In this document: piece by piece, positions 29,276-34,070 of the stretch | How the letters are laid out: each line of letters begins with the position of its first letter | Position numbering within the stretch: position 1 is the first letter of the stretch | Source: a virus | Direction: 5' to 3' (one strand) | Length of the DNA: 39,707 bases | UHGV virus genome: UHGV-0130034 | Position numbers and translations under genes: made by a program | Notes under the pieces: model-generated | Database searches by the model: none | What the model was told of the DNA's origin: nothing | The model's input: the letters and a program-made list of their open reading frames with translations, nothing else

Positions 29276-29386
29276 ATGCCCTCCATAGTAACCATGAAAC
29301 AATAATACGATATGTACTTTTAGAATGCAAACAAAAAATACATCTTGTGCATGGATGGTTTTAGTACAGAGCGTAATAATAAGGGT
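29276..29386. promoter_or_regulatory. OR/PR/PRM region between cro and cI
   Basis: Divergent intergenic region with partial repeats (aatacgatatgtact, aatacatcttgtgca) related to the OL palindrome AGTACAAATTGTACT. Confidence 0.6.
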
Positions 29387-30046
29387 ATGAAAATGAAATG
29401 GTATGAACTGGCTAGATCCAGAATGAAAGAGCTCGGCATAACTCAAGAGAAGTTAGCCGAAGAGCTTGGTATGACGCAGGGTGGAATTGGTCACTGGTTG
29501 CGCGGATCTCGTCATCCATCTCTTGACGAGATTGGTGTGGTGTTTAAATACCTTGGTATTGATAACGTCTCATTCAACCACGACGGTACATTTTCACCTG
29601 TTGGCGAATACTCATCTGCCCCCGTTAAAAAACAATATGAGTACCCTGTTTTTTCTCATGTTCAGGCCGGGATGTTCTCGCCTGAGCTTAGAACCTTTAC
29701 CAAAGGTGATGCGGAGAGATGGGTCAGCACAACCAAAAAAGCCAGTGATTGTGCGTTCTGGCTTGAAGTTGAAGGTAATTCCATGACCGCGCCAACAGGA
29801 TCCAAGCCAAGCTTTCCTGACGGGATGTTAATTCTCGTTGACCCTGAGCAGGCTGTTGAGCCAGGTGATTTCTGCATAGCCAGACTTGGTGGTGACGAGT
29901 TTACCTTCAAGAAACTGATCAGGGATAGCGGTCAGGTGTTCCTACAGCCACTAAACCCGCAATATCCAATGATTCCATGCAATGATAGCTGTTCCGTAGT
30001 AGGGAAAGTTATCGCCAGCCAGTGGCCTGAAGAGACATTTAGTTAA
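29387..30046 (+). CDS. cI: CI repressor: non-lambda N-terminal DNA-binding domain fused to a lambda-type C-terminal S24/LexA-like domain
   Basis: C-terminal ~140 aa ([53 protein letters not shown]...[11 protein letters not shown]) near-identical to recalled lambda CI; N-terminal HTH differs. Confidence 0.9.
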
Positions 30047-30270: not shown

Positions 30271-30380
30271 AGCATTCAAAGCAGAAGGCTTTGAGTAGCG
30301 CGAAATGCAGCTGCAAGACAGCAACCGTGGAGATAAGCATCACGGCGCGTTACTCAAAGCTAACTGACAGGAGAATCCAG

Positions 30381-30707
30381 ATGGATGCACAAACACGCCG
30401 CCGCGAACGTCGCGCAGAGAAACAGGCTCAATGGAAAGCAGCAAATCCCCTGTTGGTTGGGGTAAGCGCAAAGCCAGTTAACCGCCCTATTCTCTCGCTG
30501 AATCGCAAACCGAAATCACGAGTAGAAAGCGCACTGAATCCGATAGACCTTACGGTACTGGCTGAATACCACGAACAGATTGAAAGCAACCTGCAGCGTA
30601 TTGAGCGCAAGAATCAGCGCACATGGTACAGCAAGCCACGCAGTGAAATGGGTGTGACTTGTGTTGGTCGCCAGAAAATGAAATTAGGCAGCAAACCACT
30701 TATTTGA
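30381..30707 (+). CDS. N: Antiterminator N (start at MDAQTRRRERR)
   Basis: MDAQTRRRERRAEKQAQWKAANPLLVGVSAKPVNRPILSLNRKPKSRVESALNPIDLTVLAEYH.QIESNLQRIERKNQRTWYSKP matches recalled lambda N. Confidence 0.95.
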   Translation: MDAQTRRRERRAEKQAQWKAANPLLVGVSAKPVNRPILSLNRKPKSRVESALNPIDLTVLAEYHEQIESNLQRIERKNQRTWYSKPRSEMGVTCVGRQKMKLGSKPLI

Positions 30708-31328: not shown

Positions 31329-31465
31329 CCATCAATCACCAGATGCTTCGTGCAGCACAAAACAAAGCAGTAATAGCCAGATTTATTGGTGATTCAAAAA
31401 TGTGGCTTGAAGCAAATAAAGCGATGAAATCAGCTATCAACCTTCCGTGGTATCGCAGGAAATGA
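31313..31465 (+). CDS. kil: Kil-like protein (50 aa)
   Basis: GGAGG RBS 5 nt upstream; AVIARFIGDSKMWLEANKAMKSAI resembles the recalled lambda Kil motif (IATFIGDEKMFREAV); overlaps cIII stop. Confidence 0.45.
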   Translation: MRNEIAINHQMLRAAQNKAVIARFIGDSKMWLEANKAMKSAINLPWYRRK

Positions 31466-31632
31466 GTTTTACAGATAACTGGTCAGACGAAGAATTCATT
31501 CGTCAGATGAAAGAATTAATCGGTAACGAAGGAGATATTCATGTCACTTGCAACCACAGTGAAGGAGAGCAAGTTACAGAGACGCATGTACACACAGCAG
31601 GCGTTAATGTATCGCCAGAAGGGAGATCGTGA
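31462..31632 (+). CDS. Possible small acidic protein (56 aa), ATGA-coupled to kil
   Basis: ATG overlaps the kil stop; overlaps the better-supported 31541-31711 ORF in another frame. Confidence 0.3.
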   Translation: MSFTDNWSDEEFIRQMKELIGNEGDIHVTCNHSEGEQVTETHVHTAGVNVSPEGRS

Positions 31633-31711
31633 AGGTGTTCGCGTATTTTTAAATGCGGCAAAGACTGAAGTATTAAATCAGCGTTATTTCCTTGGGCCAT
31701 GTCCATTCTGA
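31541..31711 (+). CDS. Arf-like small protein (56 aa) directly upstream of erf
   Basis: Strong SD GAAGGAG 6 nt upstream; position corresponds to P22 arf. Confidence 0.5.
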   Translation: MSLATTVKESKLQRRMYTQQALMYRQKGDREGVRVFLNAAKTEVLNQRYFLGPCPF

Positions 31712-31721
31712 GAACAAACAT

Positions 31722-32327
31722 ATGAGCAAAGAATTTTACGCAAGACTGGCAGCTATTCAGGAGAATCTGAACGCGCCAAAGAATCAGTACAACTCATTCG
31801 GCAAATATAAATACAGAAGCTGCGAAGACATTCTTGAAGGCGTTAAGCCGTTACTGAATGGTCTGTTTTTATCAATCAGCGATGAAGTTGTGTTGATTGG
31901 TGATCGGTATTACGTGAAAGCCACGGCAACTATTACCGATGGCGAAAACAGTCATACGGCAACCGCTCTTGCACGAGAGGAAGAAAGCAAGAAAGGAATG
32001 GATTCTGCACAAGTTACGGGAGCTACAAGCTCTTATGCACGCAAATATTGCCTCAATGGTTTGTTCGGCATTGATGATGCGAAAGATGCAGATACAGACG
32101 AGCATAAACATCAGCAGAACGCAGCAGCAAAGCAGTCAAAACCATCACCTACACCTGAACAGGTTCTAAAAGCATTCACTGACGCAGCATTGCAGAAAAA
32201 CACCGTGGAAGAGCTTAAACAGGCGTTCGCCAAAGCGTGGAAGATGCTCGAAGGCACACCGGAGCAGCACAAAGCGCAGGACGTTTACAACATCAGACGA
32301 GACGAATTAGAAGGAGCGGCTGCTTAA
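31722..32327 (+). CDS. erf: Erf single-strand annealing recombinase (start at MSKEFYARL)
   Basis: MSKEFYARLA.IQE.LNAPKNQYNSFGKYKYRSCEDILEGVKPLL.GLFLSISDE.VLIGDRYYVKATATITDGENSH matches recalled P22 Erf. Confidence 0.9.
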   Translation: MSKEFYARLAAIQENLNAPKNQYNSFGKYKYRSCEDILEGVKPLLNGLFLSISDEVVLIGDRYYVKATATITDGENSHTATALAREEESKKGMDSAQVTGATSSYARKYCLNGLFGIDDAKDADTDEHKHQQNAAAKQSKPSPTPEQVLKAFTDAALQKNTVEELKQAFAKAWKMLEGTPEQHKAQDVYNIRRDELEGAAA

Positions 32328-32710
32328 TGGCACATTCGATTACTGTAAGACTAAACAAGCCCGCAAGAGAGTTTCAGGCCGGGGAAAATATCGGATTCAA
32401 CATCCGTGCTGGCGTTCAGTATTACGATCGCCAGACAAAAAAGAAAGAATGGACAAACTACAGCGCCGTTGTATTTGCCAAGCAGGGATCGCAAGCGGAT
32501 TACTACCGTAGTGTTCTTGTTGAAGGTGGCATTGTGGAAATTACCGGAGAAAACATCAGGGTTGATGTTTATCAGGGGCAAAATGGTCAATCAATCACTC
32601 TTGAATTACTGAATGCAAAGATTGGATTTGCAACTTCAGGAAACAGCCAACAGCAACAAAGTAGCAATCATCAAAATCATCCTGAATACGACGATTCAAT
32701 TCCCTTCTAA
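32327..32710 (+). CDS. SSB-like protein with C-terminal acidic tail ending DDSIPF
   Basis: 127 aa; Gln-rich linker then EYDDSIPF, resembling the bacterial SSB C-terminal tip (DDDIPF); GGAG RBS; TAATG coupling with erf. Confidence 0.65.
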   Translation: MAHSITVRLNKPAREFQAGENIGFNIRAGVQYYDRQTKKKEWTNYSAVVFAKQGSQADYYRSVLVEGGIVEITGENIRVDVYQGQNGQSITLELLNAKIGFATSGNSQQQQSSNHQNHPEYDDSIPF

Positions 32711-32733
32711 ATTAGCAACATAAGGATTCCATT

Positions 32734-33030
32734 ATGCCTGCGCCTCTGTATGGTGCGGATGACCCGCGCCGCTGTTCCGGCAATTCCGTATCGGAGGTGC
32801 TGGATAAATTCAGAAAAAACTACGACCTGATAATGTCTCTACCGCAGGAAACGAAAGAGGAAAAGGAATTTCGCCACTGTATATGGCTTGCAGAGAAAGA
32901 AGAACGCGAGCGAATTTACCAGACATCAATCCGACCATTCCGCAAAGCCACATATACCCACTTCCCTGAATATATCGACCCGCGCCTGCGTAATTACCGC
33001 TCACGCTATGGCGCTATCAGTAATGACTGA
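32734..33030 (+). CDS. Hypothetical protein (98 aa) in the abc-gene position (possible anti-RecBCD Abc-like)
   Basis: Position after erf/ssb as P22 abc genes; sequence not confidently recognised. Confidence 0.5.
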   Translation: MPAPLYGADDPRRCSGNSVSEVLDKFRKNYDLIMSLPQETKEEKEFRHCIWLAEKEERERIYQTSIRPFRKATYTHFPEYIDPRLRNYRSRYGAISND

Positions 33031-33040
33031 GGAATTAACA

Positions 33041-33331
33041 ATGAAAACAATGAAGCTAAACATCGACCTCGGAAAATACGTTATTACCGGAACCAAACAC
33101 GATCTGATTCTTAGCGAAAGAGGAATTATCAAAGAAGGCGAGAATGCAGGGAAAGAAACACTAAGCCGTATCGGTTATTACAGCAAGTTTGAGCATCTGG
33201 TTAAAGAATTATGCAACCGTGAAATCCTGTTATCTCAGGCGCGGACGCTACAGGATATTCAGCAGCATATCGAAGCTTTAGGTATGTCACTTAGCATGGC
33301 TATTGACCAGTTCGTGGAGAGTAAATCATGA
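33041..33331 (+). CDS. Hypothetical protein (96 aa)
   Basis: GAGG RBS; start at [13 protein letters not shown]; coupled operon. Confidence 0.6.
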
Positions 33332-33492
33332 GAGGACTTGCATACAATCCCGGCATTCTTCCGGCAGAAATGATTATTCGCCAACGCGTAAAGCCAATGC
33401 CATCGAGAGAGGAATTACTTAAGAGAAATAGTTTCGGTTCTGTTAATGACAACAAATATCTGAATGCGATGTTGCGGAGTGGGAAGAAATGA
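33328..33492 (+). CDS. Hypothetical small protein (54 aa; absent from the ORF track)
   Basis: ATGA overlap with upstream and downstream genes; GGAGAG upstream; encodes [54 protein letters not shown]. Confidence 0.45.
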
Positions 33493-34070
33493 AACAAATG
33501 ACACTAATTGAGATGGATGGATTTCTGAAAGGTAAATGCATCCCCCGAGATTTAAAGGTTAACGAAACAAACGCTGAATATCTGGTGCGTAAGTTCGGTG
33601 AACTTGAATCAAAACTGGAAACGGCGTTGCGGGAGTGCCGTTCTGCTGGAATCACGATTGATAACCTTGAGGCCAAGTACGCGGCACTGGCAGCGGAGAA
33701 TGCGGGGCTGAAGTCTGGCGCTATGGACGAAATCAAGGTTATCAACCGTGGAGGGCAGGCATATTGCGTAAAAGATGGAGTGCAAGTTAATCCCATGTAT
33801 GCAAGAGGGTGGAATGACTATCGCGCAAAGTCTCTGCAATCAGACACCCCCGCCACCGACGCTTTCCTGGCTGAAGTACGAGCGCAGGGGGTGGATGCTG
33901 CTATAGAAGCTGCAAAAAATCTGGTGGCCCAAGAATATGAGTATAAGGATTTCAAAGCGGCGCAGAGTGATTGCTGTATGCGCCCTGGTTCAGACCTGGT
34001 AGGGAAGGTTGAAATGACTGAGTGGTTAGTTGACTTTGCTGCCCAGCTTCGCAAAGGAGGCAACCAGTGA
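33489..34070 (+). CDS. Hypothetical protein (193 aa)
   Basis: Coupled ORF; predicted coiled-coil region. Confidence 0.6.

Follow-up and report, generated by a model that had tools for sequence, protein, structure and literature searches.

The left early region of the virus genome UHGV-0130034 carries an erf gene followed by two short open reading frames (ORFs), encoding proteins of 127 and 98 amino acids (aa), and the question raised by this locus is what kind of protein the first of these is and what it does beside an annealing protein. The whole stretch of DNA that was analysed, 39,707 nucleotides in length, is referred to here as the window. The features of the locus are as follows.

31722 to 32327, + strand: erf, single-strand annealing protein, 201 aa (PF04404, phrog_155, likeness to P22 Erf)
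Erf residues ~1-143: ERF core (PF04404 match over residues 5-143)
~32150 to 32324, + strand: C-terminal three-helix domain of Erf, residues ~145-201 (AF2 model)
32325 to 32329, + strand: TAATG stop/start overlap of erf and ssb (read from the sequence)
32327 to 32710, + strand: ssb, predicted single-strand DNA-binding protein of the 'SSB-1b' or HK97 gp40 type, 127 aa (phrog_44, AF2, Foldseek, hhalign, conservation of the tip)
Predicted parts of the ssb protein: OB domain, residues ~1-104; disordered Q/N/S-rich linker, ~105-120; acidic tip YDDSIPF, 121-127
32734 to 33030, + strand: abc2, anti-RecBCD protein 2, 98 aa (PF11043, phrog_656, identity to P22 Abc2)
32200 to 32738, + strand: mosaic cassette relative to P22, comprising the erf 3' end (C-terminal domain) and ssb (sliding-window DNA identity)

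The + strand corresponds to the early-left (PL) direction of a lambdoid phage. Upstream of erf the window encodes a cI-like repressor (29345-30046) and a near-identical counterpart of lambda N, and a kil-like gene and small ORFs sit before erf. P22 Arf was compared with the small ORFs 5' of erf and found to be unrelated to them. Erf itself matched PF04404 (E 2e-44 over residues 5-143) as well as phrog_155, and shares 75% identity with P22 Erf, from which it diverges mostly in the last ~60 residues. The TAA stop codon of erf (32325-32327) shares its last base with the ATG of ssb, which starts at 32327 and is preceded by an AGGAG Shine-Dalgarno sequence at 32312-32316, 10 nt 5' of the ATG. The TAATG overlap through which the original prediction had coupled translation of ssb to that of erf is therefore present in the sequence. 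The 127-aa protein begins MAHSITVRLN and ends GFATSGNSQQQQSSNHQNHPEYDDSIPF.

The 98-aa ORF gave a full-length family match to PF11043 (residues 1-98, E 4.4e-63), matched phrog_656 with an E value of 1e-56, and is 94% identical to P22 Abc2; on sequence comparison its identification as Abc2 is beyond doubt. The suggestion that an Abc-like ORF follows the 127-aa gene thus held in that the ORF is an anti-RecBCD gene, abc2, but not in the slot assigned to it, since the position held by abc1 in P22 is occupied by ssb and not by the 98-aa ORF. The Pfam and PHROG matches also bear out the placing of the 127-aa gene inside a recombination module, in which ssb directly adjoins both erf and abc2. A scan of six ORFs beginning with erf (31722-34067) detected no nuclease family. 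Contiguity of erf, ssb and abc2 without a nuclease corresponds to the HK75 functional module type, as given in Table 1 of PMC12315714. The 1.8-kb region is 97-98% identical to that of phages HK446, HK022, mEp213/mEp043, HK544, HK633 and PhiR12, of several Stx phages and of Sf101, and elsewhere the window combines P22-like structural genes with lambdoid early genes in a mosaic. Among distant relatives of ssb, the neighbouring genes still encode Erf, Rad52-like proteins or exonucleases. The window most likely comes from a mosaic P22-like/lambdoid temperate phage of E. coli/Shigella, in whose three-gene PL recombination module, erf-ssb-abc2, the 127-aa gene stands in the middle.

Sequence models of bacterial-type SSBs did not recognize the 127-aa protein. 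A Pfam scan gave no match to PF00436, a search with PF00436 against 41 members of the protein's family matched only one of them (E 0.095), and TIGR00621 scored 14.5 bits against a cut-off of 53.95 bits, so that the protein falls outside both models. A phmmer search of the PDB likewise returned sub-threshold hits only, with an E value of 0.014 to the S. aureus-type SSB 7d8j, and a search of PDB sequences with a profile also stayed below threshold. Because the curated SSB models miss this family, most database copies are named 'hypothetical protein'. The 127-aa protein did match PHROG 44, annotated as single-strand DNA-binding protein, with an E value of 2.5e-28, and an hhalign comparison using the 41-sequence family alignment as the query aligned it with E. 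coli SSB at a probability of 81% (E 1e-5).

Structure prediction gave the same assignment. The AF2 model of the 127-aa protein (mean pLDDT 84.8) is a beta-barrel with strands within residues 3-52 and 69-103 and a helix at 55-63, followed by a disordered stretch at residues 107-121 (pLDDT <50). When this model was searched against the PDB with Foldseek, each of the top 40 matches was either PriB or an SSB of bacterial, mitochondrial or apicoplast origin (E 6e-5 to 1e-3, probability 1.00). The OB fold put forward in the original prediction was thus obtained, and AF2, Foldseek and hhalign agree that it is of the SSB type. In E. coli SSB the residues W40, W54, F60 and W88 stack on bases. The corresponding hhalign columns of the 127-aa protein hold Y32, W42, F50 and Y82, so that an aromatic residue is found at all four positions; in the family alignment Y32 and F50 are invariant, W42 is near-invariant, and only Y or F occurs at position 82. 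In the alignment Thr43 stands opposite His55, a residue important to the tetramer of E. coli SSB, and the tetramer interface may differ for this reason. From the model and the alignments, the 127-aa protein is most likely a compact, highly diverged SSB of the bacterial type, with one OB domain, a short linker and a host-like tip.

The C-terminal tail was surveyed in the best 120 of 307 homologues of the 127-aa protein. In this set the tail ended in PF in 86 homologues and in IPF in 66, and nearly all of those ending in PF had two to three acidic residues at positions -8 to -4. Between the OB domain and the tip, the linker of the same 120 homologues measured 18 to 63 residues and also varied in composition. 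Homologues without a PF end comprised fragments, copies with frameshifts, a few variants with point changes in the tip (such as ILF and IPY), and sequences, mostly from metagenomes, whose tails are rich in Q and P (NFxQPQR, for example). An SSB protein-interaction tail is recognized by just this pairing of a conserved tip with a variable linker, and the window protein has both elements, namely a disordered linker (residues 107-121) and an acidic tip, YDDSIPF, of the kind ending in (I/P)PF. The original prediction of a host-SSB-type acidic tip therefore extends to the homologues, and their conservation of the tail indicates that it is not a chance feature. YDDSIPF differs from the FDDDIPF of E. 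coli SSB by two conservative changes, and DDSIPF from DDDIPF by a single residue, while the copies in Yersinia and Leminorella prophages end in MDFDDDIPF. Since the tip is near-identical to the DDDIPF of the host, the idea in the original prediction that the tail could compete with host SSB for partners such as ExoI, RecQ or chi is plausible; we would speculate that the YDDSIPF tip probably engages them as well.

The SSB-1b classification of this protein type is already published, as a prediction, and the 127-aa gene is a near-identical copy of the type found in HK97 and HK022. In the available text of a survey of 325 lambdoid phages (Casjens, Smith and co-workers, Genome Res 2025; PMC12315714), HK97 gp40 is named 'SSB-1b' on the basis of an AlphaFold3 fold like those of bacterial SSBs, at an identity of <=15%. 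The same text places SSB-1b within Rec modules, including a type with an anti-RecBCD protein, an SSB and an annealing protein and no nuclease (27 phages, prototype HK75), and describes the SSBs of lambdoid Rec modules as recognized by sequence or fold, without experimental study so far. A literature search for the SSB-1b protein type found no experimental paper, and neither the C-terminal tip nor the C-terminal domain of Erf is discussed in the text of PMC12315714 that was available for searching. The 127-aa protein is 92-98% identical in amino acid sequence to the copies in mEp043, HK544, HK106 and PhiR12, a likeness that assigns it to the gp40 type of HK97, HK022 and HK446. The HK446 copy, gp31, is annotated as similar to HK97 gp40, and the record of HK022_40 bears the note 'likely analog of P22 Abc1'. 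The copy in HF4s, annotated 'ssb protein', is frameshifted, and ssb can therefore be lost.

Comparison with P22 located the boundaries of the exchanged DNA. In a sliding window, DNA identity to P22 was ~80% in the erf core, fell to background at ~32200-32738, and rose to 97-100% from abc2 (32739 onward). The swapped unit consists of the last ~55 codons of erf together with ssb, which replace the 3' end of P22 erf and abc1, and the mosaic joint lies inside erf, at the boundary of the C-terminal domain. Homology of the 127-aa protein to P22 Abc1 was also considered, and BLASTP gave no alignment at E <= 100. In 64 of 71 viral contigs containing abc1, the annealing protein encoded upstream has a Rad52_Rad22 core (PF04098) and not an ERF core; these proteins nevertheless keep a C-terminal domain of the P22 type, 77% identical to residues 135-205 of P22 Erf.

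The C-terminal domain of Erf is predicted to be a three-helix bundle (AF2, pLDDT 82.5). Among 23 diverse, non-redundant SSB-1b loci in which the annealing protein carries a homologous domain, ssb lies directly 3' of the annealing-protein gene, and in 22 of them the junction has no intergenic gap; the exception is L091, in which the annealing-protein gene is disrupted. These loci were drawn from genomes and viral contigs, and all encode SSB-1b of the enterobacterial type (125-156 aa). Longer and more distant SSB-1b loci had no detectable copy of the Erf C-terminal domain, and recombination genes still adjoin ssb there. The domain was found on two kinds of ERF core, on a Rad52_Rad22 core (Yersinia) and on an AAA_24/Sak4-like core (Leminorella). 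This diversity of cores came from the fetched loci, searches of large protein collections with the 65-aa domain alone having returned mostly fragments and close relatives. SSB-1b was present at all 80 loci with window-type Erf, and in the loci compared there was no mixed arrangement, that is, no window-type domain with abc1 and no P22-type domain with SSB-1b.

In the 23 loci, the class of the domain also varied with that of the tail. All 10 domains ending in ELELP(A/I/V) were accompanied by Trp-containing tails (W-D/S-D/E-x-PPF or DDWDIPF), compared with none of the other 13. Since the genes adjoin one another and the classes track clades, this co-variation was not taken to show contact. Nor is the domain specific to SSB-1b, since a homologous domain occurs in P22-type modules with Abc1 and no phage SSB. 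Co-inheritance of the Erf domain and ssb may stem from the linkage of adjacent DNA alone; the pattern is circumstantial evidence, and it fits a partner-docking module that travels with the gene of its partner. In Red-beta, a C-terminal three-helix bundle is the binding site for the last nine residues of E. coli SSB (Caldwell et al. 2019, PMC6393309), and compatibility with RecT is set by the last seven residues of SSB (bioRxiv 10.1101/2020.04.14.041095). We tentatively suggest, while leaning somewhat against it, that the ~55-residue domain of Erf could be a portable partner-specificity cassette, carried on at least three cores (ERF, Rad52-like and Sak4/AAA_24) and exchanged as a unit with ssb or abc1, which would dock the SSB tail in the window phage and Abc1 and/or the tail of host SSB in P22. 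If true, this would account for the need for the Erf C-terminal domain in vivo and would give Abc1 a role. That need reportedly emerged from Poteete's work on Erf fragments.

A mechanism for the module can be proposed in three steps. P22 Abc2 binds RecC, and the RecBCD enzyme altered by it supports phage recombination; in the model put forward, loading of Erf is favoured over that of RecA (PMC9836394). In the window phage, Abc2 on RecC would likewise reprogram RecBCD, as is established for P22 Abc2, and phage ends would be resected to single-stranded DNA (ssDNA) without Chi or RecA loading. The phage SSB, which would be made stoichiometrically with Erf through the TAATG coupling, would then coat this ssDNA, as its fold and conserved aromatic residues suggest. 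Finally, the YDDSIPF tip would bring Erf onto the SSB-coated ssDNA for annealing, probably by way of the three-helix domain of Erf. We infer this last step from the HK620 SSB/Sak4 pair, from the binding of the host SSB tail by Red-beta, and from the joint inheritance of the domain and ssb. That the 127-aa protein aids annealing by Erf is likewise suggested by analogy with HK620 SSB-Sak4 (PMC5928155) and with Red-beta and the host SSB tail (PMC6393309). Taken as a whole, the explanation in which a diverged SSB, encoded in the middle of erf-ssb-abc2, coats the ssDNA produced under the influence of Abc2 and recruits Erf to it is in our judgement probably correct.

Three other roles were weighed against that of a cofactor for Erf. 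Occupation of the exact abc1 slot between erf and abc2, and the note in the HK022_40 record, would fit a functional analogue of P22 Abc1 that acts with Abc2 on RecBCD and not with Erf, and functional overlap is conceivable given that the role of Abc1 itself is yet to be established (PMC9836394). Several observations make this quite improbable: BLASTP finds no similarity to Abc1, the predicted fold is that of an SSB/OB protein with an SSB-type tail, distant relatives of ssb occur without Abc2, and for the HK620 protein in the same slot it is the SSB that acts in recombineering, Abc2 having no effect (PMC5928155). A role in replication, in which the protein would coat lagging-strand or rolling-circle ssDNA and adjoin erf by mosaic accident, appears the least probable of all and indeed very unlikely. 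Many phage SSBs do function in replication, and the two roles cannot be distinguished from the fold alone, but the gene lies within the PL recombination block, outside the PR replication module, ssb overlaps the stop codon of annealing-protein genes of three core types, and even its distant relatives have recombination genes as neighbours.

Somewhat less improbable, though still unlikely as the main function, is that the tail would serve as a decoy in host takeover, mainly competing with host SSB for ExoI, RecQ, RecJ, PriA, RecO and chi, so that host repair on phage ssDNA would be diverted or blocked. The two conservative changes separating YDDSIPF from FDDDIPF are in keeping with such a role, as is the way in which the tip tracks the host type across host clades, for example the MDFDDDIPF of Yersinia and Leminorella. 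The same conservation would, however, be expected if the tail were read only by the phage annealing protein, which must itself operate with host SSB as well, and the close coupling of ssb to the annealing-protein gene speaks for a recombination cofactor. The roles of decoy and recombination cofactor are compatible, and the former is possible as a secondary function. We thus retain the reading of the 127-aa protein as an SSB that works with Erf.

The finding is largely confirmatory, in that the module type is known from predicted folds, as set out in the available text of PMC12315714, and the likely mechanism follows precedents; the only new and testable addition is that the C-terminal domain of Erf may serve in docking. 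In the phage records and prophage proteins retrieved, ssb is mostly a 'hypothetical protein', and the evidence for an SSB fold and a host-type tail helps its annotation. Cognate pairs of annealing protein and SSB also have practical weight, since the SSB tail governs the portability of recombineering.

Among known systems, the P22 erf-abc1-abc2 module has the same gene order and the same stop/start coupling as that of the window phage. The two differ in the middle gene, which in P22 is abc1, encoding an unrelated protein of 94 aa, and in the C-terminal domain of Erf, of which P22 has a diverged variant with 34% identity to that of the window. E. coli SSB shares with the 127-aa protein the OB fold, aromatic residues at the four stacking positions, and a linker with an acidic tip ending in IPF. 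It is longer, however, at 178 aa, compared with 127 aa including a 17-residue linker; identity between the two is ~15-19%, below curated thresholds, and where E. coli SSB has His55 and DDDIPF, the window protein does not conserve the histidine and ends in DDSIPF. Red-beta of lambda is an annealing protein which, like Erf, ends in a small three-helix bundle, and provides the precedent for docking of an SSB tail; the Erf and Red-beta domains have no sequence similarity, and a structure search with the Erf domain recovered no specific match.

The proteins HK97 gp40, HK022 gp40 and HK446 gp31 are the same protein as that of the window, in the same erf-ssb-abc2 order and with the same predicted SSB-like fold, and nothing substantive differs between them. 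HK620 SSB (HkaK, 'SSB-2') shares the slot between an annealing-protein gene and abc2. It is a protein of 195 aa with the SSB-like tip NDYPPF, and its partner is Sak4. Homology of the 127-aa protein to HK620 SSB-2 was tried and rejected (hhalign probability 0.3%). HK620 Sak4 is without the C-terminal three-helix domain, yet it uses the SSB tail. [quoted passage not shown] Removal of the six C-terminal residues NDYPPF cut recombineering 10-fold and abolished the binding of Sak4 to SSB-coated ssDNA (PMC5928155), and of the systems compared here HK620 SSB is the best functional precedent for the 127-aa protein.

The annealing proteins with ERF, Rad52_Rad22 or AAA_24 (Sak4-like) cores were found to have in common a C-terminal three-helix domain of about 55 aa, for which there was no Pfam family:

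32150-32324, in the window, 3' end of erf
L105:2310-2498, L095:2810-2998 and L097:1371-1556, further copies at fetched loci

This domain is co-inherited with the downstream gene, which is SSB-1b, the HK97 gp40 type of phage SSB, at some loci and Abc1 at others. Loci L093-L094 and L171-L178 were compared with L089-L092 and L179-L184 for domain ending and SSB tail. Every domain with the ending ELELP(A/I/V) partners an SSB tail that contains Trp (W-D/S-D/E-x-PPF or DDWDIPF); domains with the ending ELEG... partner (F/Y)DDSIPF tails. At two loci, L174 and L177, the domain ending and the tail both appear hybrid.

The SSB-1b gene of phage HF4s (L002:2228-2626) contains a frameshift after about 38 codons, and its annotation gives two separate ORFs, one of 94 aa called "ssb protein" and one of 36 aa. 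Since similar breaks occur in several database homologues (e.g. P0047, P0056 and P0088), this gene is sometimes lost.

Two overlapping small ORFs lie immediately 5' of erf, at the position of P22 arf:

31447-31632, + strand, 61 aa, phrog_2123, loosely labelled "recombinase"
31541-31711, + strand, 56 aa, phrog_1723, loosely labelled "recombinase"

Despite this position they are unrelated to P22 Arf, which was rejected as their identity. The 56-aa product ends in LGPCPF, and its positional counterparts at other loci in GPAPF or GKEPF; as sequences, these ends are reminiscent of the SSB-type ...PF tip.

Two further genes are:

30378-30707, + strand, antiterminator
33041-33331, + strand, 96-aa ORF after abc2, DUF5405, phrog_154

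For a small protein of the PL operon, the "replication initiation protein" label carried by phrog_154 seems questionable. The antiterminator is a near-identical counterpart of lambda N, the structural genes of the window are P22-like, and its Rec module (erf, ssb and abc2) is of the HK97/HK022 type, a combination that is a typical lambdoid mosaic.
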